From an uncultured Gammaproteobacteria bacterium (GTDB lineage: Bacteria > Pseudomonadota > Gammaproteobacteria > Pseudomonadales > JAHEGP01), in the NCBI GenBank assembly GCA_963792875.1, contig CAWBXV010000001.1:116661-180660 (forward strand): a DNA stretch of 64,000 nucleotides, written 5' to 3'. The position numbers and the translations under genes are program-made. Shown here piece after piece: positions 16,637-41,203 of this stretch. Numbering within the stretch: the first letter of the stretch is position 1; each line of letters starts with the position of its first letter. The notes beneath the pieces are model-generated. The model saw nothing but the letters and a program-made list of their open reading frames with translations. It was not told where the DNA came from and made no database searches.

Positions 16637-16946
16637 GCTGAATCTCCTGTCGTAAAACACCGCATGCGGCCAGCCGCGGCCCACTGGGCGGGTATGGTAG
16701 CAAAAACCGTAGCGCCCTCCAGCAAAAAAAGCAGGCCGAGTGCGCCGGGCTGTGCGGCAGCGCCCAGGACCGGCCATGAACGCCCGCACAGTGCCAGCGC
16801 CGTGGTAATAACGGGCCACCTTTGCGCCCCGCTGCGGCCAGCTCTGTCCGCTTTCGCTATTGTCATTCTCGCGCCTTGCGGTAAGCTTAGCGCCCCGTAC
16901 CACCGCCCCTGCCCCCAGGTCAGGAGGCCCGTCTGTTTCCTCATAG

Positions 16947-18140
<1,194 letters not shown>

Positions 18141-23267: not shown

Positions 23268-26200
23268 TCAGCCCGCCCCGCCCTCGCGCTCGGCGAGAAA
23301 GGCTGCGGCCCGCTCCCTGGCGCGCCCGAAGTCGATCTTGCCGCTGCCAAGCTTGGGCACGTCGCTCACCGGCACGACGACCGACGGGATCCACAGCGGG
23401 TTCATGCGGCTGTGGCGCAGCACGGCGAGCAGCTCATCGGGATCGCGCTGCGAACCGCACAACAGCACGATGCGCTCCCCCTTTCTGGCATCCGGGACAC
23501 TCACGGCGGCGACATCCAGGGTCGGCTCAGCCAGCGCACGGCGCACCGCGTGCTCGACATTGCCAAGACTCACACTCTCGCCGGCGATCACGGCGAAGCG
23601 GGAATAGCGGTCGACGATATGGAGGAAGCCGTCCTCGTCCATGAAGCCCTTGTCGCCCGTGACATACCAGCGCACGCCACCCGCCTGCTGGATGACCTGC
23701 GCCGTGCCGTCGTGGTCCTTGAGGTAGCCCACCATCACCTGGGGACCACCGATCATTATGCGCCCGGCCTCCCCCACGGCTCGCTCCTGGCCGCTGTCGG
23801 GGTCGACCACCCTGAAGCTGGTTCCCGGCAGCGGCATGCCCACGCTGCCGGCCTTGTTGCCCTGCTGCACCGACCAGTAGTCGGTGTCGAGCTGGTCGGG
23901 CAGGTTGACGCTGGCGACCGGGGCGGTCTCGGTGGTGCCGTAGCCCTCCATGACATCCTTGTGGAACTTGAGCTTGAAGGCATCCCGCACGTCGGCACTG
24001 AGCTTTTCGGCGCCGGCGATGACCACCCGCAGCGGATCCAGCATCAGCGGGTGGACTTTGGGGTGTTTGATGTAGAGGCGCAGGAAGGTGGAGGTCGCGC
24101 ACAGCACGGTCGCATGGTAGCGCGCCACCGCCTTGGCCACACCGAGCGCATCGGTCGGGTCGGGGTGACAGATGACCGGCAGGCCCTCCACCAGCGGCAG
24201 AAACTGGCCGACCGTCAGCCCGAAGGCGTGGAACAACGGCAGCTGCGCCATCAGCACATCGTGCTCTTCCATATTGAGCACATCGGAGGCCTGCTTGATG
24301 TTGGCCATGATATTGCGGTGGCTCAGCATCACGCCCCGGGGCCGCCCCTCGCTGCCGCTGGTGAACAGGATGGCGGCGATCTCCGAACCCTCCGTTCGGC
24401 GGCAGCACAGCGGCTCGAGCACCATGGCAGGCAGCAGCTTCACGGCCACCAGCGCCGCGCGCCGCTCGGCTCGACCGATGCCGGCGCTGATGTCCTCGAG
24501 GTAGTGCACCTCGACCCGCTGCAGCAGCGCCTGCAGATCGACACCCCGCTCGCCCAGGCGCTTGATCACCTCGCGCGAGGTGAACACGCGGTCGAGCTCG
24601 GCCAGCATGACCGCGGCGCACAACGATTCGCCATCGGCCGTGAAATTCAGGTTGACCACCGTCTTGCCCGCCATCAGGGCGGCCATATTGGCCAGCATGC
24701 CATGCATGCTGGTGGGGAACAGCAGCCCGACGTTCTGCCGCGGATTCAGGCGCCGCAGGCGCCGCGACAGCACCATGCCGCCCGCCAGGGCGCGGCTGCC
24801 CGACAGGGATCTGCCGAACGCGTCGCGGATGGCCATGTCGCTGCCGAGCTTGCGCGACGCGCGGATCCACGCCTGGGGGATGCCCGGCAGCGACTTGGAG
24901 AACTCGGACCAGGCCTCGATCGACAGATCGAAGACCCGGTGCTTGAGCATCTCCGCATCGGTGGAAATCGGCAGCGGCGTCCCGAACGCCACGATGATAT
25001 CGCGGCTGGTGCCGGCGTTGCGGGCACTCCTGAGTTTGGCGCTGGCGCGGGAAAACTGGCTGCCCCACATGCCGCCGATATAGAACGGCACGATCACGCA
25101 GTCCTTCCGGGTCATCGCGGCGGCCCGCTCGAAGCCCTTGCGGAAGGTGGCCAGGTGGCCGGTGCGGCTGATGGTGCCCTCGGGAAACAGGCACACGACC
25201 TCGCCTTCATCGAGCAGCTTCGCCACGGTCTCCAGCGCCTGCTGGGCCGACGCACCCCGGCCGATGGGGACCACCTTGCCTATGCGGAAGAACCAGTTCA
25301 GGTACCACAGCTGGTAGATGTTCTTGGCCATGACGAAGCGAATGGGGCGCGGCGAGGCGATCTGCACCAGCCCCCAGTCCAGCCAGCTGATGTGGTTGCC
25401 CAGCAGCAGCACCCCGTTGGTCTCGGTCAGGTTGCGCATGCCCTGCACCCGGACCTTGTAGCGGCGCGAGATGAGATAGACCAGCAGGAAGCGCACCAGC
25501 GAGTAGGGCAGCGTATAGACCGTGTACAGGCTGCCGAAGAACGCCACCACGATCAGCAGGCTGAGGATGAGCACGGCGCTGGCCCCGGTCGACGACAGCG
25601 CGACGGTCATCACCAGAAAGCTGAGCATGCCGATGTTCTGGATCAGGTTGTTGGCGGCCAGCACCTGGCCCATCTCGCGATCGCCGGCGTGGAACTGTAT
25701 CAGCGCGTTGAGGGGCACGATAAAAAAGCCGCCCATGGTGCCGATAAACAGAAAATTGAGCACATGGGCCCCCTGCGAGCCCAGCTGCGGAATCATGCAC
25801 AGACCCAGCGTGATGCCGGCGGCGCCGATGGGAATCAGGCCGGTCTCGATGTGGTGCCGCGACCAGCGCCCGGCCACGAGGGAGCCGAGCATGATGCCGA
25901 TGCCGCTGGCCGCCAGCGTGCCCTGGATCATCACCGTGTTGGTCTCGCCCAGCGTCTCCTTGGCAAAGGCGGGAAAGGTCGCCAGCATCACCTGGCTGAT
26001 GGACCAGAACATGGTCAGGCCGATGATGGAGCGCATGATGACCGGCCGCGACACGGCCGGGCGCAGGCTGCCCTTGAAGCTCGACCCGGTCAGATAGCCC
26101 GTCCAGTCGAAATGGCGGTCCGTGGCCCGCTGCTCCAGCTGCGGTATGCGGTAGGCAAAAAACAGCTGCAACAGGCTGTTCGCCACCAGCACCCAGCCCA

Positions 26201-26750
26201 GCGGCGCGATCGCGCCGAGTATCGCCGCCTCGTCGTGCTGCACCAGCGGGTCATAGCGCGCCTCGAACAGGATCGAGTAGGCGAAGGTGCCCAGCAGAAT
26301 GGCGATGATGGTGGTGGCCTGCACGGCGCCGTTGCCCTCGCCGAGCCGCTCCTTGCCGACCAGCAACTTGATAAAGCCGTACTTGGCCGGCGAGTAGAAC
26401 GCCGACTGCACCGCCAGCAGGAAGGTCATGGCGAAGGCGGCAATGAACCAGCCCTGGTAATAGCAGGCCGTCACCCCCAGCGTCAGGCCGACGGCGGCCC
26501 ACGCGGCGGCCTTCATGACCTGGTTCTTGGGATACTTGTCCGAGATGAAACCCGACGGCAGAAACAGCAGGATGAACGGCAGCAGAATGAGCGCGTTGAC
26601 GACGGCGGTCAGCATGATCTGGGTGGTGCCGTCGTAGACCTTGAAGACCGTGTTCTGAACGACGATCTTGTGGCCCAGATCGATGAAGGCGTTGAGAAAC
26701 ACCACCGTGATGTACGCAAAAAAGCCGTGGATACCCAGCACGTTTCTCAT
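23268..26750 (-). CDS. aas: MFS lysophospholipid transporter / acyltransferase / acyl-ACP synthetase fusion (acyl-[ACP]--phospholipid O-acyltransferase, LplT-Aas type)
   Basis: 1160 aa. The N-terminal ~400 aa are a 12-TM MFS domain, followed by a PlsC-type acyltransferase motif NHISWLD (H-x4-D) and a C-terminal AMP-binding adenylation domain (TSGSEGRPRGVMLSH...YGTTET). Confidence 0.85.
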   Translation of the reverse strand: MRNVLGIHGFFAYITVVFLNAFIDLGHKIVVQNTVFKVYDGTTQIMLTAVVNALILLPFILLFLPSGFISDKYPKNQVMKAAAWAAVGLTLGVTACYYQGWFIAAFAMTFLLAVQSAFYSPAKYGFIKLLVGKERLGEGNGAVQATTIIAILLGTFAYSILFEARYDPLVQHDEAAILGAIAPLGWVLVANSLLQLFFAYRIPQLEQRATDRHFDWTGYLTGSSFKGSLRPAVSRPVIMRSIIGLTMFWSISQVMLATFPAFAKETLGETNTVMIQGTLAASGIGIMLGSLVAGRWSRHHIETGLIPIGAAGITLGLCMIPQLGSQGAHVLNFLFIGTMGGFFIVPLNALIQFHAGDREMGQVLAANNLIQNIGMLSFLVMTVALSSTGASAVLILSLLIVVAFFGSLYTVYTLPYSLVRFLLVYLISRRYKVRVQGMRNLTETNGVLLLGNHISWLDWGLVQIASPRPIRFVMAKNIYQLWYLNWFFRIGKVVPIGRGASAQQALETVAKLLDEGEVVCLFPEGTISRTGHLATFRKGFERAAAMTRKDCVIVPFYIGGMWGSQFSRASAKLRSARNAGTSRDIIVAFGTPLPISTDAEMLKHRVFDLSIEAWSEFSKSLPGIPQAWIRASRKLGSDMAIRDAFGRSLSGSRALAGGMVLSRRLRRLNPRQNVGLLFPTSMHGMLANMAALMAGKTVVNLNFTADGESLCAAVMLAELDRVFTSREVIKRLGERGVDLQALLQRVEVHYLEDISAGIGRAERRAALVAVKLLPAMVLEPLCCRRTEGSEIAAILFTSGSEGRPRGVMLSHRNIMANIKQASDVLNMEEHDVLMAQLPLFHAFGLTVGQFLPLVEGLPVICHPDPTDALGVAKAVARYHATVLCATSTFLRLYIKHPKVHPLMLDPLRVVIAGAEKLSADVRDAFKLKFHKDVMEGYGTTETAPVASVNLPDQLDTDYWSVQQGNKAGSVGMPLPGTSFRVVDPDSGQERAVGEAGRIMIGGPQVMVGYLKDHDGTAQVIQQAGGVRWYVTGDKGFMDEDGFLHIVDRYSRFAVIAGESVSLGNVEHAVRRALAEPTLDVAAVSVPDARKGERIVLLCGSQRDPDELLAVLRHSRMNPLWIPSVVVPVSDVPKLGSGKIDFGRARERAAAFLAEREGGAG

Positions 26751-31653: not shown

Positions 31654-32256
31654 TCAGGCCGGCACCCCGCTGTGAAAGCGGAAATCCGCATCCGCGGATG
31701 CGATCAGCTCAAACTCCAGCGCCCTGAAATGCTCGATGCGCGCCGCCACGGCAGCGCCCGCGGTGCGCTGCGCCAGCTCGAGGTAGTGCTGATAGTGCCT
31801 GGCCTCGGACCGCAGCAGCGAGGCATAGAACCTGCCGAGCCTGTCATCCAGGCGCGGCGCCAGCGCGGCAAAGCGCTCGCAGGAGCGTGCCTCTATAAAG
31901 GCACCGACGATCAGGGTATCGATGAGCCGGGCCGGCTCATGCGTGCGCACGTGCCGGCGCAACTCGCCCGCGTAGCGCGACGGCGACACGTGCACGTAGG
32001 CTATGGCCCGCTCAGCCATGATCGCCAGCACCTGCTCAAAGTGCCGCAACTCCTCCCTGGCCAGGCGCGACATGGCGTTCAGCAGCTCGGCATCGTCGAT
32101 ATACCGATACATCAGCTGCAGGGCGGTACTGGCGGCTTTCTTTTCGCAATTGGCGTGGTCGATGAGCAGCACGGGCAGGTTGTCCAGGGCGCAGTCCAGC
32201 CAGGCCCGCGGCGTCGGACCACCCAGGAAGGCATGGAGTTCGGCAAGGTCGGTCAT
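31654..32256 (-). CDS. miaE: tRNA-(ms2io6A)-hydroxylase MiaE (ferritin-like diiron)
   Basis: Start at MTDLAELHAF (ATG 32256). LIDHANCEKKAA...REELRHFE...GAFIEARSCERF...SEARHY are the diiron E/H ligand motifs of MiaE. Confidence 0.8.
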   Translation of the reverse strand: MTDLAELHAFLGGPTPRAWLDCALDNLPVLLIDHANCEKKAASTALQLMYRYIDDAELLNAMSRLAREELRHFEQVLAIMAERAIAYVHVSPSRYAGELRRHVRTHEPARLIDTLIVGAFIEARSCERFAALAPRLDDRLGRFYASLLRSEARHYQHYLELAQRTAGAAVAARIEHFRALEFELIASADADFRFHSGVPA

Positions 32257-32456
32257 GCGGGTCTCGCGGTGCTGAAGCGGCGGCCAAGTATACAACGGCG
32301 CGCCGCGCCCTGGCACCGCAGTCCCGGCCGGCCGCACGCTGAATCCTTAACTACGGCGGCCGCTTCCGGTACAATTCAACGGTTTTCACATCAACTGATC
32401 GAACCCACGGTCCCTGCGCGGCCATGCCGCCGGATCGTTCCTGTGGAGGTAGCAAA

Positions 32457-35051
32457 GTGCTTGAAGCGTATCGCGAACACGTAGCAGAACGGGCAGCCCT
32501 GGGCATTCCGCCCCGACCGCTGTCGCCCGAGCAGGTCGCCGAACTGGTCGAATTGCTCAAGTCTCCTCCCGCCGGCGAAGCAGAAACGCTGCTCGAGCTC
32601 ATCTCCGACCGGGTGCCGCCGGGCGTGGATGAGGCCGCCTATGTCAAGGCCGGCTTTCTTACCGCCATCGCCAAGGGCGAGGCCAGCTCGCCGCTGATCG
32701 ACCGGCAGGCTGCCATCAGACTGCTGGGAAACATGCACGGCGGCTACAATATCGCGACCCTGGTGGCGCTGCTCGATGACAGCGAGCTGGCGGCCGCAGC
32801 GGCCGAGCAGCTCAAGCACACCCTGCTGATGTTCGACGCCTTCCACGACGTCGACGAGAGGGCCAGGGCCGGCAACGAGCAGGCGCGCGCGCTGCTGCAG
32901 TCGTGGGCGGACGGCGAGTGGTTCACCAGCCGCCCCGAAGTGCCTCATTCCACGGTGGTCACGGTCTTCAAGGTCGCCGGCGAGACCAACACCGACGACC
33001 TCTCGCCCGCACCCGATGCCTGGTCGCGCCCGGACATTCCACTGCATGCCCTGGCCATGTACAAGATGCCCCGCGAGGGCATCACCAACGCCAAGTCGCA
33101 GATCGAGGAGCTCAAGGCCAAGGGACACCCCATAGCTTTCGTCGGGGACGTGGTCGGCACCGGTTCATCGCGCAAGTCGGCCACCAACTCCGTACTCTGG
33201 TACATCGGCGACGACATGCCGGGGGTGCCCAACAAGCGCAGCGGCGGCATCTGCATCGGCGGCAAGGTCGCCCCCATCTTCTACAACACGATGGAAGACG
33301 CCGGCGCCCTGGTGTTCGAGGCCCCCGTGGAGGCGCTCAATTGCGGTGACGTCATCGACATCCGCCCCTACGACGGCAAAATCCTCGATGCCCAGAGCGG
33401 CGCCGTGCTGTCGGAGTTCACCCTCAAATCCGAGGTGCTGCTGGACGAGGTGCGCGCCGGCGGACGCATCAACCTGATCATCGGCCGGGGCTTGACCGAA
33501 CGCGCCCGCGAAGCGCTGGGACTGGGGCCCTCCACGCTGTTCCGCGCGCCGACCCAGCCGCCGGATTCCGGCCGGGGCTATTCGACCGCCCAGAAGATGG
33601 TGGGTCGCGCCTGCGGCGTCGAGGGCGTGCGGCCGGGCACCTACTGCGAGCCGCGCATGACCACCGTGGGCTCCCAGGACACCACCGGCCCCATGACCCG
33701 CGATGAACTCAAGGACCTGGCCTGTCTGGGATTCTCGGCCGATCTGGTGATGCAGTCCTTCTGCCACACCGCCGCCTACCCGAAGCCGGTGGACATCGAT
33801 ACGCAGCACACCCTCCCCGACTTCATCATGACCCGCGGCGGGGTCTCTCTGCGCCCCGGCGACGGCATCATCCACAGCTGGCTCAACCGCATGCTGCTGC
33901 CGGACACGGTCGGCACGGGGGGGGATTCCCACACCCGCTTCCCGATGGGCATCTCCTTCCCCGCCGGTTCCGGCCTGGTCGCCTTCGCCGCCGCTACCGG
34001 CGTCATGCCGCTGGACATGCCGGAGTCCGTGCTGGTGCGCTTCAAGGGCACCATGCAGCCCGGCATCACCCTGCGCGACCTGGTCCACGCCATCCCCTAT
34101 TACGCCATCCAGCAGGGCCTGCTGACGGTGGAGAAGAAGGGCAAGAAAAACTTCTTCTCCGGGCGCATCCTGGAAATCGAGGGGCTGCCCGACCTGACCG
34201 TGGAGCAGGCTTTCGAGCTCTCTGATGCGTCCGCTGAGCGCTCGGCGGCCGGCTGCACCATTCAACTGTCGGAGAGTTCGATCGCGGAGTACCTGCGCTC
34301 GAATGTGACGCTGCTGCGCTGGATGATCAGCGAGGGTTACGGCGATGCCCGCACCCTGGAGCGCCGCGCCTGCAGGATGGAAGAGTGGCTGGCCAACCCG
34401 CAGCTGATCAGCGCCGATGCCGATGCCGAATACGCCGCCGTGCTGGAAATCGACCTGGACGGGATCCGCGAACCCATCGTGTGCGCCCCCAACGACCCGG
34501 ACGACGCCCGCCTGCTGTCGGAGGTCGCCGGAGACCGCGTGGACGAGGTGTTCATCGGCTCGTGCATGACCAACGTCGGCCATTTTCGCGCGGCAGGCAA
34601 ACTGCTGGACGCCAACAAGGGGGTGATCGCCACCCGCCTGTGGCTGGCGCCGCCCACCAAGATGGACGAACACATCCTGATGGAAGAGGGCTATTACAGC
34701 ATCTATGGCCGCTCCGGCGCCCGCACCGAGATGCCCGGCTGCTCTCTGTGCATGGGCAACCAGGCCCGCGTGGCTTCCGGGTCAACCGTGCTGTCGACCT
34801 CCACGCGCAATTTCCCCAACCGGCTGGGCGACGGCGCCAACGTCTATCTGACGTCCGCCGAACTCGCCGCCGTGGGCGCCATCCTGGGCCGGCTGCCGAC
34901 ACCCGAGGAGTACCTGGAGTATGCCGAGCGCATCGATTCCATGTCTGCGGATATCTACCGCTACATGAACTTCGATCAGATAGAGGCGTTTCAGGCAGGC
35001 GCGGAGAAGGGCAAGCGCATCGCGGCCACGGAGGTTGTCGAGGTCAGGTAG
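32457..35051 (+). CDS. acnB: bifunctional aconitate hydratase 2 / 2-methylisocitrate dehydratase
   Basis: Collinear with E. coli AcnB from (V)LEAYREHVAERAALGIPP to the C-terminus (e.g. VFKVAGETNTDDLSPAPDAWSRPDIPLHALAM, GSCMTNVGHFRAAGKLL, GCSLCMGNQARV). GTG 32457 with GGAGG 8 nt upstream. Confidence 0.96.
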   Translation: MLEAYREHVAERAALGIPPRPLSPEQVAELVELLKSPPAGEAETLLELISDRVPPGVDEAAYVKAGFLTAIAKGEASSPLIDRQAAIRLLGNMHGGYNIATLVALLDDSELAAAAAEQLKHTLLMFDAFHDVDERARAGNEQARALLQSWADGEWFTSRPEVPHSTVVTVFKVAGETNTDDLSPAPDAWSRPDIPLHALAMYKMPREGITNAKSQIEELKAKGHPIAFVGDVVGTGSSRKSATNSVLWYIGDDMPGVPNKRSGGICIGGKVAPIFYNTMEDAGALVFEAPVEALNCGDVIDIRPYDGKILDAQSGAVLSEFTLKSEVLLDEVRAGGRINLIIGRGLTERAREALGLGPSTLFRAPTQPPDSGRGYSTAQKMVGRACGVEGVRPGTYCEPRMTTVGSQDTTGPMTRDELKDLACLGFSADLVMQSFCHTAAYPKPVDIDTQHTLPDFIMTRGGVSLRPGDGIIHSWLNRMLLPDTVGTGGDSHTRFPMGISFPAGSGLVAFAAATGVMPLDMPESVLVRFKGTMQPGITLRDLVHAIPYYAIQQGLLTVEKKGKKNFFSGRILEIEGLPDLTVEQAFELSDASAERSAAGCTIQLSESSIAEYLRSNVTLLRWMISEGYGDARTLERRACRMEEWLANPQLISADADAEYAAVLEIDLDGIREPIVCAPNDPDDARLLSEVAGDRVDEVFIGSCMTNVGHFRAAGKLLDANKGVIATRLWLAPPTKMDEHILMEEGYYSIYGRSGARTEMPGCSLCMGNQARVASGSTVLSTSTRNFPNRLGDGANVYLTSAELAAVGAILGRLPTPEEYLEYAERIDSMSADIYRYMNFDQIEAFQAGAEKGKRIAATEVVEVR

Positions 35052-35074
35052 CCTGCCGGCAGGCGCCGGGACAT

Positions 35075-35110
35075 CCGCGGCCCCTCGGCATGCTGGCCGA
35101 GGGGCCGCGG
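35075..35110. terminator. perfect 15-bp GC-rich hairpin between convergent acnB and the TerB-like gene (putative bidirectional terminator / REP-like element)
   Basis: CCGCGGCCCCTCGGC-atgctg-GCCGAGGGGCCGCGG. No clear U-tract on either side. A second, shorter hairpin (CCGCGCCC..GGGCGCGG) lies near 35154-35172. Confidence 0.45.
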
Positions 35111-35201
35111 GCTTCGATCGCGGGCCGGCGCACAGTCGCTGGCAAGCGGCTGCCGCGCCCCCGGGCGCGGGGGAGCAGCCCGGGCCAGGTGTGCCGCTGC
35201 A

Positions 35202-35672
35202 TCAATCCATGATGCGTTCCAGATAGTGCATCAGGCGGCCGAACGGCCCCCGGGTCGCCGCCAGTTCCTGCTCGAACTGGGTGGCATCGGCGACGAGCTG
35301 CCGCCGATAGTCGGCGATATCAGCGCGAATGGCCGCCACGTCCAGCGTGGCCATGTGGGCCTCTTTGATCTTCTCATAGACCTCTCTCTCGCTATGGCAC
35401 ATGCTGCCATCCTCCCAGAAGATGACATCCGCGATATTGAGAAGGTGAGCCCGGTCCTGTAAATCGGTGATCTGCGGCCACACCTCGTCGAGCCTGACGG
35501 GGCGATCGACCTCCTCCCGGAGCTGCGCCTTCTGTGATGCCGACAGCTGCTTGTTGTGCTCGATGTAGACGAGGATGCGCTCTCGCTCACCGGCGTCCAG
35601 CTCGCGGTCTGCCCACGCCAGGGCGATGGTCGCGCGAAACATTGCATAATGGCTCTCAGTAGCCTCTGTCAT
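35202..35672 (-). CDS. TerB-like (tellurite-resistance TerB / DjlA-N fold) hypothetical protein
   Basis: 156 aa from ATG 35672 (RBS GGGAGA). Two-lobed pattern IALAWADRELDAGERERIL...LLNIADVIFWEDGSMCHSEREVYEKI resembles TerB-domain repeats (A-x-ADG-x-hydrophobic-x3-E). The 466-aa track ORF is a run-on. Confidence 0.5.
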   Translation of the reverse strand: MTEATESHYAMFRATIALAWADRELDAGERERILVYIEHNKQLSASQKAQLREEVDRPVRLDEVWPQITDLQDRAHLLNIADVIFWEDGSMCHSEREVYEKIKEAHMATLDVAAIRADIADYRRQLVADATQFEQELAATRGPFGRLMHYLERIMD

Positions 35673-35869
35673 GGTTATCTCCCGATAGGTGAAAAAAATC
35701 AGCCTCCATAGGCTTGATGAGGGCGCAGGGTATCGGCAACGGCCAGCGGCTGCCAGTGTCCACCCGCATGGGCTGCATCGGCCCCTGCTCGTCGGCACCA
35801 CGGCGCCAGGCCGTGCCGATGACCCGGGTCGGTGCGCCGGTGGGGGTCGGGGCTTCTGCGGGGCATCGT

Positions 35870-37975
35870 CTAGGTCGCCGGACCGCCGCCGTGCGCCTGC
35901 GGCGGCGGCAGGGGAGCCGCGCGGCCGTGCACCGGTCTGACCAGGCTCAGACGGAGCTGCAGCACGCGCAGCGCCAGCACCAGCACCAGCCCATGCAGGC
36001 GCTGGCGACGCGGCCAGTGGTAGCGCAGATCGGCGTAGGCCAGCGCCGAGTAGACGGCTGCGAAATCCGCCAGCAGGCCCTTCAATTGCGGCCAATCTTC
36101 CGCCACCCTGGCGCAATAGGCGATCATCGACTCCTGCGGGCGGCGCGCCGCCTGCTGACCAGCGCCAGCCTGCAAGCGACCGAGCAGCCAGACCACGGCG
36201 GCAGCCGCGAAGCTGGCGGGCGGCCGCCGGCGCAGGAGCAGGCCTCTTAGCAGCCACACCAGCAACAGCACACTGATGGCGACGAGCGACAGGACCAGCA
36301 CCTGCGCCAGCAGCCCGATGCTGGACCTCCCCAGCCAGTGATCCAGCCAGCGCAGCTGGTCCGCGCGGCTGTAATTGAGCACCCAGTTGTTCCAGCCGTA
36401 ATTCACCGCATCCCACCACAGGCGCACGCCCTGCAGCCAGGCCACATCGGAGTAGGCCATCCAGCCCAGCAGGCCATCCGGCCGGAACTGATCGCGCGCC
36501 AGCAGCACGCTCTCGATGCCGTTCAGCACCCGCTCCGGCGCGACCTGCGCGGTGGGATCGAAGCGCACCCACCCCGCGTCCTCCAGCCACACTTCGGCCC
36601 ACACGTGAGCGTCCATCTGACGAACGCTGAGATACGCCTCGAACGGGTTGACCTCACCGCCCAGGTAACCGCCCACCATGCGCGTGGGCACGCCGGCGGC
36701 GCGCAGCAGAAACACAAAGGCAGAGGCATAGTGCTCGCAATAGCCCTGGCGGCTGTCGAACAGAAAGCCATCGATGGCATTGCTGGCGAACGCCGGCGGC
36801 TGCAGCGTATAGACAAACGGCTCCTGGCTGAACCTGGCCAGCACGGCGTCGACGATGCGCCGGTCAGCGCCGAACTGGCTCCGCAGCTGCGCGCCCAGCG
36901 CGCGCGCCGCCGGGTTTTCCTGCCCCGGCAGCGACAGGTTCATCCGCCGCTGTTCCGGCGTCAGGGCTACCCGCAGGCTGTCGACGCGCTGGCTGGTGAC
37001 GCTGTAGGAAAAGCGCGCCCTCAGCGGCCGCTCCGACCTGAGCGTGAAATCGGCCGTCTCGATCACTCCCGGCTGTACCGAAACCGCCAGCGGCAGCGCA
37101 AACAGCCAGCGCTGATGGGTCGGCTCCACCACCACATCATACGAAAAGGCGCCACCGCCCGTCAGCTCGGGACGGGGCGCGGCCTGCATGGATGCGGGCA
37201 GTACCGTCCAGCTGCTGCCATCAAAGCCCTCCAGCACCAAGCCCCGCCAGTACAGGTCCGCGTTCGCCGGAACGCCGGCAGCGAAGGTGACGCGGAAGGC
37301 CACCTCCGCGGAGCGGGCAAACTGCCCGAAGCTGCCCAGCGACACCTTCTCGCTGATGCCCGCCTTGCGCTCCGCGCTGGGCATGGGCGCCAGCCACAGC
37401 GGGTCGACCCGCGGAAACAGCAGAAACAGCACCGCCAGCAGCGGCAGGCCCTGCAACAGGAGCCCCAGGGCGCGGGCCATGGCGGCGCCAGGACCATCCC
37501 CGCCCTCGTAATGCAGCGACAGCAGCGCCGCAGTCAGCAGCAGATAGCACAGCACCGCATAGACCGTTCCGACCAGCGACTGACCATAGAGCAAGGGCGT
37601 CGTCGCCACGAAGTAGCCCAGGAAGAGGGTGACATACATGTCGCGCGCGCGGCGGGTTTCCAGCAGCTTGAGGAAGAACACCAGGATGAGGAAGGTGACG
37701 GTGGCGTCGAGGCCGAGCTCGTCGAGAAAGCTCAGCAGCACCGCCAGCAGCGCGGCCCCGCTCAGCAGCGCCCGCATGGCACCGCTGGCAAATGGCAGCT
37801 TTTCGCGATAGATCTGCACGCGCCAGACCGCGCACAGCATGCACACGACGAACAGCCACGGCGGCAGCCCGCCGACGTGCGGCAGCACCAGGGCAAACTG
37901 TGCCAGCAGCAGCCAGTACAGGCTGGTCCGCGAGATTTGCGCCTCGTAACTCACCGCCGCGCGACCACCCTTCAT
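35870..37975 (-). CDS. tgpA: membrane transglutaminase-like protein (TgpA-type: N-terminal multi-TM domain + transglutaminase core + C-terminal TM/DUF4129-like region)
   Basis: 701 aa from ATG 37975 (ATGA overlap with the DUF58 stop). About 6 N-terminal TM helices. Cys-His-Asp triad motifs QGYCEHYASAF, DAHVWAEVW and WVRFDPT. Confidence 0.8.
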   Translation of the reverse strand: MKGGRAAVSYEAQISRTSLYWLLLAQFALVLPHVGGLPPWLFVVCMLCAVWRVQIYREKLPFASGAMRALLSGAALLAVLLSFLDELGLDATVTFLILVFFLKLLETRRARDMYVTLFLGYFVATTPLLYGQSLVGTVYAVLCYLLLTAALLSLHYEGGDGPGAAMARALGLLLQGLPLLAVLFLLFPRVDPLWLAPMPSAERKAGISEKVSLGSFGQFARSAEVAFRVTFAAGVPANADLYWRGLVLEGFDGSSWTVLPASMQAAPRPELTGGGAFSYDVVVEPTHQRWLFALPLAVSVQPGVIETADFTLRSERPLRARFSYSVTSQRVDSLRVALTPEQRRMNLSLPGQENPAARALGAQLRSQFGADRRIVDAVLARFSQEPFVYTLQPPAFASNAIDGFLFDSRQGYCEHYASAFVFLLRAAGVPTRMVGGYLGGEVNPFEAYLSVRQMDAHVWAEVWLEDAGWVRFDPTAQVAPERVLNGIESVLLARDQFRPDGLLGWMAYSDVAWLQGVRLWWDAVNYGWNNWVLNYSRADQLRWLDHWLGRSSIGLLAQVLVLSLVAISVLLLVWLLRGLLLRRRPPASFAAAAVVWLLGRLQAGAGQQAARRPQESMIAYCARVAEDWPQLKGLLADFAAVYSALAYADLRYHWPRRQRLHGLVLVLALRVLQLRLSLVRPVHGRAAPLPPPQAHGGGPAT

Positions 37976-38943
37976 GCCGGCGTCCCGCTGAACCCGTGGC
38001 GAGCCAGCTGCTCCAGCAAGCGGCGCCGGTGCTCCAGCCCCTGGGACGGAGCGATCTCCCTGCCCCCCAGGCGAAGCCCGAAGGGAGCGCTCTGCGCGCT
38101 CAGTTGCAGCACGGCGTAGCACAGCGCCGAGAGCCGGTCCTCCGGGTTGCTTGCCGGGACCAGCACCTCGTCGATCCAGAGCTCCTGCTGCTGCGCTTCC
38201 TCGAACTGCATCGTCATCAGCGGCTGCTGCTTGGCGAAGGCCTTCCACAACACCTGCCGCGGCGGATCGCTGGGCCGCCACGGGCGGATATTGCTGAACT
38301 CGTCGCGCTGCTGATCGCTGCAGCGGCCCGCGCCCAGAGCGCGCGCCGCCACCGGCAGCGGCCGCACCATGCGGGGCCGGGGGTACACCCAGCAGGCGAG
38401 CTGCAGATCCTGCCAGCTCCAGGCGCGGAACAGGCCCAGGGGGTAGACGGTCTCCACCCGGACGCGGCCGGGGCGCAGCAGTCCGCGCCGGGGGGCATCG
38501 TGGTACAACTCCACGACGGCTTCCGACTGCCCGTCGAGGCTGCTCCGCGCCACGCCCTGGCCGGGCCATCCCGCCGCGATGGCATAATGTCTGCGGCCGG
38601 CCTCGCGCTGCAGGTGCAGCCGGAACGCCACCCGGTCACCGGCAAAGGCGGGGACGCAGCTGCCGCGGCGCAGGCGCAGCCCGGCGAGATTGGCATACGT
38701 CAGGAACATCGCCACCACCAGCTGCCCAACCAGCAGAAAGGCCAGCAGGTAGATCGCGTTGTTCTGGTAGTTGATGGCCGTCACCAGCAGCAGCAGCACC
38801 AGCGCCAGATAGACCAGGCCGGCCCGCGTGGGAAAGATGAAGATGCGTCGATGGTCCAGGCGCACAGTCTCCGCCGGCGGATTGCGCCTCAGCAGCCAGC
38901 GCTCGACGTGAGGCTCCATGCGGACCCGGAGCGCCGCCAGCAT
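37972..38943 (-). CDS. DUF58 domain-containing protein (vWA-like MoxR partner)
   Basis: 323 aa. RIFIFPTRAGLVYLALVLLLLVTAINYQNNAIYLLAFLL (two TM helices) followed by a DUF58-type core. Starts 3 nt after the MoxR stop. Confidence 0.75.
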   Translation of the reverse strand: MLAALRVRMEPHVERWLLRRNPPAETVRLDHRRIFIFPTRAGLVYLALVLLLLVTAINYQNNAIYLLAFLLVGQLVVAMFLTYANLAGLRLRRGSCVPAFAGDRVAFRLHLQREAGRRHYAIAAGWPGQGVARSSLDGQSEAVVELYHDAPRRGLLRPGRVRVETVYPLGLFRAWSWQDLQLACWVYPRPRMVRPLPVAARALGAGRCSDQQRDEFSNIRPWRPSDPPRQVLWKAFAKQQPLMTMQFEEAQQQELWIDEVLVPASNPEDRLSALCYAVLQLSAQSAPFGLRLGGREIAPSQGLEHRRRLLEQLARHGFSGTPA

Positions 38944-38946
38944 CGG

Positions 38947-39864
38947 CTAGGCCAGCACGTCGACCGACGCGAGCACCCGGTGCACGATGGCGCCGTCGGC
39001 CGGCAGCAGGTGTGCACCATCGCGCAGGCGGTGGCCGGTGACGGCGGGAAAGACCTGCTGGACATCTTCGGGCACGACGTAGTCCCTACCCTCCATGGCC
39101 GCCCAGGCCCGCGCGCAGCGCAGCAACGCCAGCACGCCCCTGGGCGAAAGTCCGACGCCGATATCGCCGTCCTGGCGCGTGAAGCCGACCAGCCGCTGCA
39201 GATAATCCAGCAGGCTCTCGCTGGTCTTCACCGCGTCCGCCCGATCCTGCAACGCGAGCAGTGTCTCCCGACCGAGCGAGGGCTGCAGCTGCTGCAGGCG
39301 CTGTTCCCCCGGTATGCCCAGCAGAATCTCGCGCTCTGCGCGGGGGTCGGGATAGCCCAGCTGAATGCGCATCATGAAGCGGTCCAGCTGCGATTCCGGC
39401 AGGGGAAAAGTCCCGCCCTGGTAGTCGGGGTTCTGCGTGGCGATGACGAAATAGGGATCCGGCAGCTGCCGGGTGCGGCCGTCGGCGGTCACCTGCTGCT
39501 CGGCCATGGCCTCCAGCAGCGCGCTCTGAGTTTTGGGGGTGGCGCGGTTGATCTCATCGGCCAGCAGCACCTGGGTGAACACCGGGCCGGCATGGAATAC
39601 GAAGCGGCCATCGTCCTTGTCGAAGATGGATACGCCGATGATGTCACCGGGAAGCAGGTCGCTGGTGAACTGAATGCGCTGGAACTCCAGCCCCAGCGCC
39701 CGCGCCAGTGCCCGCGCCAGCGTGGTCTTGCCCATCCCCGGCAGGTCTTCGATGAGCAGATGACCGCGGGCGAGCAGACAGCACAGGGCCAGCCTGACCT
39801 GCCCCTCTTTGCCTACCAGCACGGTGCCGATGGCCTGCACCAGTTGATCGATCTGCTTCTGCAT
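38947..39864 (-). CDS. MoxR-family AAA+ ATPase
   Basis: Start at MQKQIDQL (ATG 39864). Walker A DLPGMGKTTLARALA, FTSDLLPGDIIG, Walker B LLADEINRATPKTQSALLEAM and VIATQNP are hallmarks of the MoxR/AAA_3 family. Confidence 0.9.
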   Translation of the reverse strand: MQKQIDQLVQAIGTVLVGKEGQVRLALCCLLARGHLLIEDLPGMGKTTLARALARALGLEFQRIQFTSDLLPGDIIGVSIFDKDDGRFVFHAGPVFTQVLLADEINRATPKTQSALLEAMAEQQVTADGRTRQLPDPYFVIATQNPDYQGGTFPLPESQLDRFMMRIQLGYPDPRAEREILLGIPGEQRLQQLQPSLGRETLLALQDRADAVKTSESLLDYLQRLVGFTRQDGDIGVGLSPRGVLALLRCARAWAAMEGRDYVVPEDVQQVFPAVTGHRLRDGAHLLPADGAIVHRVLASVDVLA

Positions 39865-39985
39865 GCATCCCCCCGCAGCACTGCCCCCGGCTGCCGTGCG
39901 GCGCCGGGAACCGACAGTGACCACAGTATAGACCACAGTTTCCGGGTCTATGCCCTGCCGGCGAAGCGTCCTGCGAGCCCGGGAG

Positions 39986-41203
39986 TCAAAGTGCCGCCAG
40001 GCCCCGCTGCAGATCGGCCCTGATGTCGTCCAGCGCCTCGAGGCCGACCGACACGCGGATCAGGTTCTGGGCGATGCCGGCCTGCTCCCGCTGCTCGTCG
40101 GTAAGCCGGCCGTGGGTGGTGGTGGCGGGGTGCACGATCGTCGACTTGGCGTCGCCGAGGTTGGCGGTAATCGACAGCATGCGCGTCGCATCGATGACGC
40201 GCCAGGCCTCTGCCCTGCCGCCTCGCACCTGGAAGGACAGCACGCCACCGAAAGCCGTCTGCTGCCGCGCCGCCAGCGCATGCTGCGGATGCGTGGGCAA
40301 GCCGGCATAGTAGACGCGCGTGACCGCCGGCTGCTGCTGCAGCCACAGGGCCAGCGCCAGGGCGCTCTCGCTGTGGGCCTGCATGCGCAAGCGCAGCGTC
40401 TCCAGTCCCTTGAGGAAGACCCAGGCGTTGAACGGGCTCATGGTGGGACCGCAGGAGCGCAGAAATCCCAGCACCTCGGCCATGTGGGCGGCGCCGCCCA
40501 CGACCACGCCACCGACACAGCGACCCTGACCGTCGAGATACTTGGTGGCCGAGTGCACCACGATGTCGGCACCGAGCTGCAGCGGCCGCTGCAGCGCGGG
40601 GGTACAGAAGCAATTGTCGACGATGAGCAGGCAGCCATGGCGGTGCGCGAGATCGGCCAGGCGCCGCAGGTCGACCACCTCGCACAGCGGATTGGAGGGG
40701 GTCTCGAGAAACAGCACGCGGGTCTGCGGCGTGAGCGCCGCCTCCCAGGCGCCCTCTTCGGTGGGTGCCACGAAGGTGGCGGCCACCCCGAAGCGCCCCA
40801 GGTACTTGGCCAACAGCGTGGTGGTCGTGCCGAACACGCTGCGCGAGCAGACGACGTGATCGCCCGCCTGCAGCAGCGACATGAAGGCGCTGAGGATTGC
40901 CGCCATACCCGACGCCGTGGCCACGGCGTCCTCACCGCACTCCAGGGCGGCGATGCGCCGCTCGAATATCCGCACCGTGGGATTGGTATAGCGCGAATAG
41001 ACGTTGCCGGGTTCGTCACCGGAAAAGCGCGCCGCCGCGCTCGCGGCGTCGCGAAATACGTAGCTGGAGGTGGTGAATATCGGCTCGCTGTGCTCACCCT
41101 CAGCGGTGCGCACCTGCCCGGCGCGCACCGCCAGCGTGTCCAGCTGCGCGCCCTCCAGAAAGGCCTCCCTCTCGAGCTGCTTGTCCCACTCGTCCACCGT
41201 CAC
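39986..41203 (-). CDS. metZ: O-succinylhomoserine sulfhydrylase (Cys/Met-metabolism PLP enzyme)
   Basis: PLP-enzyme motifs YSRYTNPT and SATKYLDGQG (Lys in the SxxK context). Position directly after purF, as in Pseudomonas. Start probably GTG 41203 (the upstream alternative overlaps purF). Confidence 0.85.
   Translation of the reverse strand: MTVDEWDKQLEREAFLEGAQLDTLAVRAGQVRTAEGEHSEPIFTTSSYVFRDAASAAARFSGDEPGNVYSRYTNPTVRIFERRIAALECGEDAVATASGMAAILSAFMSLLQAGDHVVCSRSVFGTTTTLLAKYLGRFGVAATFVAPTEEGAWEAALTPQTRVLFLETPSNPLCEVVDLRRLADLAHRHGCLLIVDNCFCTPALQRPLQLGADIVVHSATKYLDGQGRCVGGVVVGGAAHMAEVLGFLRSCGPTMSPFNAWVFLKGLETLRLRMQAHSESALALALWLQQQPAVTRVYYAGLPTHPQHALAARQQTAFGGVLSFQVRGGRAEAWRVIDATRMLSITANLGDAKSTIVHPATTTHGRLTDEQREQAGIAQNLIRVSVGLEALDDIRADLQRGLAAL

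Follow-up and report, generated by a model that had tools for sequence, protein, structure and literature searches.

The window analysed in this study is a 64,000-nucleotide (nt) stretch of DNA from an uncultured gammaproteobacterium (contig CAWBXV010000001.1, positions 116,661 to 180,660). The locus of interest within it comprises four genes, all on the minus strand. In the direction of transcription, these encode a MoxR-type ATPase (38947-39864; 305 amino acids, aa), a DUF58-like protein (37972-38943; 323 aa), the membrane-bound transglutaminase-like protein TgpA (35870-37975; 701 aa), and a TerB-like protein (35202-35672; 156 aa). The ATG of the MoxR gene, at position 39864, is preceded by GGGGGGA. 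The junctions between the first three genes were read directly from the sequence: the MoxR and DUF58-like genes are separated by 3 nt (TAG-ccg-ATG), and the DUF58-like gene overlaps tgpA in an ATGA. These three genes are translationally coupled. The ATG of the TerB-like gene follows tgpA after a gap of 197 nt and has GGAGA 5 nt upstream. An initial annotation, made from the sequence alone, had described the same four genes, junctions, and motifs, including the coupling of the first three genes and the separate ribosome-binding site (RBS) of the 156-aa open reading frame (ORF) 197 nt downstream; all were found at the positions that it had given. The four genes were taken to be genuine rather than chance ORFs because the MoxR and TgpA proteins matched Pfam families and homologs were found for the DUF58-like and TerB-like proteins. 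None of the four proteins had an NCBIfam equivalog, and nothing credible was returned by Rfam across positions 34900-40100.

Loci encoding TgpA in other organisms were located by two routes. Genome contigs were scanned with TgpA using a procedure that needed exact 8-residue words; this yielded eight loci at 35-39% identity. Two closer relatives, which are also the closest syntenic ones (L016 and L017), were found through homologs of the DUF58-like protein. The locus of Pseudomonas aeruginosa (L018) and a conspecific contig (L019) were compared as well. The 11 other TgpA loci represent Shewanella, Pseudomonadales, Burkholderiaceae, P. aeruginosa, and several gammaproteobacterial metagenome-assembled genomes (MAGs). 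The order MoxR-DUF58-TgpA was kept in all 11, and a DUF58/vWA partner gene stands beside MoxR in each of them, as it does here. Identities of MoxR, the DUF58-like protein, and TgpA were 74%, 60%, and 53-55% to L016/L017, and only 62%, 43%, and 39% to P. aeruginosa (P0101 in the case of the DUF58-like protein). The two close relatives share the gene order trpFBA-accD-folC-SPOR-cvpA-purF-metZ-moxR-duf58-tgpA, followed by a convergent acnB. The 4-nt overlap of the DUF58 and TgpA genes was also present in L016, L017, and L018.

In P. aeruginosa, PA2875, PA2874, and PA2873 (tgpA) are co-transcribed, and viability depends critically on tgpA (Milani et al. 2012, PMC3507681). The two sets of genes have the same order and similar lengths (305, 317, and 668 aa there, 305, 323, and 701 aa here), and in both the genes overlap or are tightly coupled. 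They also share the TgpA_N and Transglut_core domains, an aligned catalytic triad, a truncated DUF58 partner, and the layout of transmembrane (TM) helices. Beyond the low identities, two differences lie at the ends of the unit. The P. aeruginosa operon follows pyrF, while that in the window follows metZ, and the fourth gene in P. aeruginosa encodes a CHAD protein and overlaps tgpA by 4 nt, whereas the TerB-like gene here comes after the 197-nt gap. The initial annotation had described the first three genes as an operon of the MoxR/DUF58/TgpA type, and this description agrees both with PA2875-PA2874-tgpA and with the operon of MoxR, vWA, and transglutaminase-like (TGL) genes that has been called “very common” in prokaryotes (Zhang & Aravind 2012, PMC3495828). 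The latter, the “MoxR-vWA-YebA-like TGL” operon of bacteria and archaea, resembles the present locus in its three components, in its 8-TM layout, and in the placement of the TGL domain between TM7 and TM8. We read the region as a conserved three-gene housekeeping module orthologous to PA2875-PA2874-tgpA, with a small TerB-superfamily gene inserted independently downstream, and assign this reading a probability of roughly 0.8. For the three-gene core, the initial reading is correct and was already in the literature; the window adds another ortholog.

A further comparison was made with the PFNA cluster of Bifidobacterium (pkb2-fn3-aaa_atp-duf58-tgm; PMC8430577 and PMC6803598, via PMC12067865). 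The cluster has a contiguous triad of MoxR-type AAA, DUF58, and transglutaminase genes; it differs in adding a Ser/Thr kinase and a secreted FN3 protein, with host-signal sensing as the proposed role. Neither a kinase gene nor an FN3 gene was found at the locus in the window.

The first protein of the module matched Pfam AAA_3 (1.2e-61, 206.8 bits) and AAA_lid_2 (6e-22, 77.6 bits), as would be expected of the MoxR family to which it had initially been assigned. Its Walker A motif (GMGKTT, from residue 43) and Walker B motif (LLADEINR, from residue 100) are intact, as previously described. It is a soluble AAA+ ATPase and the ortholog of P. aeruginosa PA2875. A weak match to bpMoxR (2.7e-08, 33.6 bits) raised the question of a MoxR-vWA conflict or defence system, akin to the bpMoxR ternary system or to actinobacterial Esr, in which the transglutaminase would serve as an anchor or as the effector. 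MoxR-vWA modules with a transglutaminase (EsrD) do sense threats in Actinomycetales (bioRxiv 10.64898/2026.09.08.750141). However, PADLOC gave only a generic P-loop match and assigned no defence system, and no beta-propeller, kinase, FHA, or effector gene lies nearby. The module is embedded in conserved housekeeping synteny, flanked by purF-metZ and by acnB, and has a critical role in P. aeruginosa viability (PMC3507681). A role in defence is therefore hardly credible for this locus.

The family assignment of the second protein was less straightforward. Compared to PF01882, it scored 11.8 bits (E=0.13), which is under the cut-off of 23.4; P. aeruginosa PA2874 likewise fell under this threshold, at 15 bits. 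Homology was evident at the level of the family. Homologs numbered 563 at E<=1e-3, and 42 orthologs with 36-65% identity were compared, of which 21 matched PF01882 at E<=0.01 (best 2.5e-11). These matches were confined to positions 3-117 of the 216-position profile. NCBI and JGI both annotate the orthologs as DUF58. The AlphaFold2 (AF2) model, with a mean predicted local distance difference test (pLDDT) score of 87.7, consists of a TM hairpin, a beta-sandwich, and a small alpha/beta remnant. When this model was submitted to Foldseek, only Ig-like/MG/CARDB sandwiches were returned and no vWA domain; a sequence search of the PDB gave nothing meaningful. Of the 42 members, one has the DxSxS motif; in the window protein the corresponding stretch, where the metal ion-dependent adhesion site (MIDAS) motif would be expected, reads WIDEVL. 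Thus, the DUF58 label of the initial annotation held as a statement of homology to the family; it did not extend to the PF01882 threshold, to a full-length vWA-like domain, or to a DxSxS motif. The two-helix membrane anchor that had been proposed was confirmed by hydropathy and the AF2 model, at residues 33-61 and 61-89. The N-terminus is Arg-rich, and because of this and the hairpin anchor the soluble part (the beta-sandwich and the alpha/beta remnant) is expected to be cytoplasmic. The protein is the ortholog of PA2874 and a membrane-anchored, C-terminally truncated member of a DUF58 subfamily. More generally, the “DUF58” proteins linked to TgpA, including PA2874, form a truncated subfamily that mostly lacks the canonical DxSxS metal site.

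The third protein contains TgpA_N (PF11992, formerly DUF3488; residues 21-333; 2.3e-69, 234.4 bits compared to a cut-off of 30) and Transglut_core (PF01841; 7.8e-23, 81.3 bits compared to a cut-off of 23). Its residues 189-504 aligned to the P. aeruginosa TgpA periplasmic domain of known structure (PDB 6G49/6G4H) with E=1.6e-80 for 6G49. The motifs GYCEHYASAF, DAHVWAEVW, and RFDPT carry Cys413, His457, and Asp473, which align without gaps to positions 243, 287, and 303 of the 6g49 chain. The residues initially proposed as a catalytic triad therefore do occupy the transglutaminase catalytic positions. As the 6G49 construct starts at residue 180, the triad falls on Cys404, His448, and Asp464; this agrees with the triad numbering of P. 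aeruginosa TgpA. To judge from these domains and alignments, the product of 35870-37975 is a TgpA ortholog. The two domain matches bore out the expected architecture, but the third expected domain, DUF4129 (PF13559), gave no match at E<=10 in the last 210 residues. This distinguishes the window protein from P. aeruginosa TgpA (43.7 bits); the L016 protein scored 23.6 bits. The tail can still be aligned with those of L016 and L017 as far as residue 676. The DUF4129 tail is accessory to the TgpA family rather than one of its defining features.

The topology of TgpA was derived from hydropathy and the positive-inside rule, with a split of residues 19-51 into two helices being assumed. Approximately seven N-terminal TM helices and one C-terminal helix (at roughly 548-580) were discerned, rather than the “about 6” N-terminal helices counted initially. 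Clusters of Lys and Arg occur at the N-terminus, in the loops at 52-65 and 103-112, and after TM8; the loops at 35-38, 85-90, and 131-133 contain none. On hydropathy, TgpA is an 8-TM protein with a Cys-His-Asp transglutaminase-fold domain between TM7 and TM8. Because the N-terminus is placed inside and seven helices precede the domain, the catalytic domain is predicted to be periplasmic, with the short loops and the tail in the cytoplasm. This tail is an Arg-rich segment of about 120 aa after TM8. The catalytic domain of P. aeruginosa TgpA has likewise been predicted to be periplasmic by TMHMM, a PhoA fusion screen points to its export, and the protein is localised to the membrane and has Ca-independent transglutaminase activity in vitro (PMC3507681); this activity and the critical role in viability are reported for that species only.

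For exactly such operons, Zhang & Aravind (PMC3495828) proposed membrane-proximal ATP-dependent degradation: the vWA/DUF58 protein would recruit substrates, MoxR would unfold them, and a cytoplasmic TGL domain in the TM7-TM8 loop would cleave them. The eight TM helices and the location of the domain between TM7 and TM8 agree with the hydropathy of the window protein. Moreover, the transglutaminase fold is among those of the papain-like cysteine peptidases (PMC10318531), and pairings of AAA+ proteins with peptidases recur in other systems. The cytoplasmic peptidase and the degradative role predicted in that work are, however, at odds with the charge distribution observed here, which places the TgpA domain outside the cytoplasm, and with the indicated export of the P. 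aeruginosa protein, whose purified domain has transamidase activity. Further, the “vWA” partner at this locus is a half-length DUF58 remnant; without DxSxS and half of its domain, it would make a poor metal-dependent substrate receptor. Degradation by this route is considered quite improbable at this locus.

With the ATPase and the catalytic domain on opposite sides of the membrane, MoxR could not feed unfolded substrate to the active site. A MoxR hexamer may instead bind the DUF58 adaptor on the cytoplasmic face of the membrane and, using ATP, may assemble, remodel, or switch TgpA via its cytoplasmic tail and loops. What would be controlled is a periplasmic transamidase or isopeptidase, the target of which would be an envelope protein or a peptidoglycan- or lipopolysaccharide-linked substrate. 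We infer that action of MoxR on TgpA through a DUF58 adaptor is the most likely mechanism, and it is the one that we favour. The specific combination of a half-length DUF58 adaptor lacking the usual metal site with “inside-out” switching of periplasmic TgpA by MoxR is offered tentatively and is held to be rather unlikely.

The fourth gene encodes an acidic protein, as had been noted initially (pI 4.98, with 30 Asp and Glu compared to 19 Lys and Arg). By itself it remained below the Pfam thresholds, with 26.5 bits compared to 29.6 for DUF533 and 16.8 bits compared to 24.4 for TerB. Thirteen homologs were retrieved using a word index, and a profile search yielded 448 representative clusters among 1.84 billion proteins. 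Among 57 members of the family, 49 matched PF05099 and 46 matched PF04391 (E<=0.01). The AF2 model is all-helical (pLDDT 85.1), and its best Foldseek matches were 2h5n and 2ou3 (probability 0.99-1.0, TM-scores of 0.45-0.55, E about 0.06). The latter structure, that of the COG3793 tellurite resistance protein, also ranked first when the profile was compared to the PDB (E=0.046); a PDB search using the single sequence gave nothing meaningful. The protein shares with the TerB/DUF533 (YebE) superfamily, represented by 2OU3 and 2H5N, its all-helical nature and paired acidic motifs (WAD..L...E and EDG.....E). It differs from the YebE-type DUF533 proteins in having no TM segment, and it belongs to a small separate family. 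It is a genuine member of the TerB superfamily, and the initial label is right at that level: the assignment was borne out by family-level homology and fold and was not reached by the Pfam threshold for the protein by itself.

Among the 14 closest members of this small family (alignment A1, residues 16-106), W65, D73, R74, H76, N79, C92, and H106 are invariant. These residues go beyond the generic acidic motifs of TerB, and they may belong to a ligand- or metal-binding site peculiar to the family.

The genomic surroundings of the TerB-like gene were examined in the TgpA loci and around its own homologs. In L016 and L017, 116-120 nt lie between tgpA and acnB, and this spacer holds no gene; in the window the distance is about 820 nt, and no similarity was found between the window's tgpA-acnB region and the intergenic sequences of those two loci. 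No TerB-like gene lies within 10 kb of the eight more distant TgpA loci. In total, it stands next to tgpA in none of the 11 non-conspecific loci, and the arrangement is repeated only in L019. Which gene follows tgpA depends on the lineage: P. aeruginosa has CHAD, Shewanella a 1,211-aa ORF, and other lineages other genes. When metagenome contigs were scanned with the TerB-like alignment, only the conspecific contig and one fragment with 31% identity were recovered. TerB-like homologs with 60-67% identity adjoin genes for an aminotransferase, glycosyltransferase, permease, TraT, or sulfotransferase (five lineages with informative flanks) on contigs with a guanine-plus-cytosine (GC) content of 48 to 67%, and those with 42% identity lie between clpP and clpX or after infA. 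Across seven TerB-like lineages with informative flanks, none had TgpA near the TerB-like homolog. The composition of the gene is also distinct: its GC content (61.4%) and its GC content at third codon positions (GC3; 78%) are below those of the neighbouring genes (67-71% and 85-90%, respectively).

A consensus scan of the 197-nt gap located a weak terminator-like hairpin, AGCCT-ATGG-AGGCT followed by a run of seven T residues (35691-35714, minus strand), 28 nt upstream of the TerB-like ATG. No consensus promoter was detected in the gap by the same approach. The folding of the gap was no better than that of shuffled sequences (z=-1.3). The hairpin is kept in L019, where the run comprises eight T residues; no counterpart was found upstream of TerB-like homologs elsewhere, and those upstream regions had no common motif besides the RBS. 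A search for signs of mobile insertion around the gene returned only low-identity repeats (26 nt, 73%), which were taken as chance occurrences in DNA of 67% GC.

The TerB-like gene is not regarded as part of the unit because it is absent from relatives, its homologs occur in unrelated contexts, its GC and GC3 are lower, and a terminator-like site precedes it. It is judged to be a lineage-specific insertion between the convergent tgpA and acnB genes that encodes a separate cytoplasmic protein with its own RBS. The initial annotation had instead suggested a four-gene unit, with the TerB-like protein as an accessory component that senses stress or metal. The gene is indeed on the same strand, only 197 nt downstream and with no consensus promoter in the gap; the arrangement is maintained in the conspecific contig, and membership in the TerB superfamily is supported. 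Nonetheless, the absence of co-conservation with the three-gene core, together with the unrelated neighbourhoods of both the 60-67% and the 42% homologs, the difference in GC3, and the hairpin and T run ahead of the RBS, largely refutes this proposal. In P. aeruginosa, the position after tgpA is taken by the non-homologous PA2872, which is transcribed independently (PMC3507681). The four-gene version thus has a very slim chance of being correct. A narrower alternative, in which read-through from the operon has allowed the TerB-like protein to be co-opted as a modulator in this lineage only, is a weaker addition to the inside-out reading.

Several observations on the TerB-like genes were made in passing. 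Between L019 and the window, the MoxR, DUF58-like, and TgpA proteins are 99.3-99.7% identical and the TerB-like proteins 97.4% identical (4 of 156 residues differ); the divergence would fit a looser constraint on the TerB-like gene, although the numbers are small. A homolog with 42% identity splits clpP and clpX at a distance of ~33 nt from each, both in a Rickettsiales MAG (L012:9354-11797) and in a second contig (L013:2214-4681). Its location within this normally contiguous pair is an unusual insertion. Two candidates were considered and set aside. PA2872 was rejected as a TerB-like homolog, as it is a CHAD protein. The other was an ORF upstream of the TerB-like gene in L014 which, at 323 aa, is as long as the DUF58-like protein but shows neither similarity to it nor a Pfam match.

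To return to the reading of a conserved module with an independently inserted neighbour and its favoured mechanism, several points weigh against it. The mechanism is inferred, and in no organism have MoxR, DUF58, and TgpA been reported to interact. PA2875, the MoxR gene, can be disrupted in P. aeruginosa without loss of viability, whereas tgpA cannot (PMC3507681); therefore, MoxR would be at most a modulator of the essential role of TgpA. The topology was derived from hydropathy and the positive-inside rule, with the assumed split of residues 19-51, and in the prediction of Zhang & Aravind the TGL domain of the family is cytoplasmic (PMC3495828). With regard to the insertion, the TerB-like gene is kept beside tgpA in L019, the hairpin is weak, and co-transcription by read-through is possible in this organism.

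Some neighbouring features were also recorded. An inverted-repeat search of the spacer between the convergent acnB and TerB-like genes identified a perfect, GC-rich hairpin of 15 bp with a 6-nt loop (35075-35110, no strand assigned). It lies 24 nt past the acnB stop codon, lacks a T-run, and occurs only once in the window. For the spacer, the folding energy is -99.4 kcal/mol (z=-3.4), and the hairpin may act as a terminator for both genes. In the window (31654-35051), acnB is directly beside miaE. In L016 (13137-19367) and L017 (13130-20657), a pair of genes for XpaC-like (PF10112) and TelA (PF05816) proteins is found between acnB and miaE; both are absent from the entire 64 kb of the window. 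Both flanks of acnB thus differ, with the tellurite-associated pair in the relatives and the TerB-superfamily gene on the other side in the window. The occurrence of tellurite-type genes at differing acnB flanks may be a coincidence. In L017 (13130-17362), the acnB call is split into ORFs of 694 and 168 aa, which suggests a frameshift or an assembly error, and an ORF for a reverse transcriptase (RVT_1) is located at 16724-17362, about 1 kb from the split acnB. Elsewhere in the window (23268-26750, minus strand), a 1,160-aa ORF fuses a major facilitator superfamily transporter, an acyltransferase, and an AMP-binding domain; we take it to resemble the LplT-Aas system of lysophospholipid transport and re-acylation in a single polypeptide.

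TgpA has been reported for over a decade to be critical for the viability of P. aeruginosa, its substrate is still not known, and the triad of MoxR, DUF58, and transglutaminase is widespread. The locus in the window makes no open question newly testable. Its analysis does have by-products: the TerB-like gene is excluded as a component of the system, and the DUF58 proteins linked to TgpA are truncated and mostly lack DxSxS. A third is that a catalytic domain in the periplasm is at odds with the published “unfold-and-cleave” model. If MoxR does act on TgpA in an inside-out manner, the topological conflict between the two published models would be resolved.

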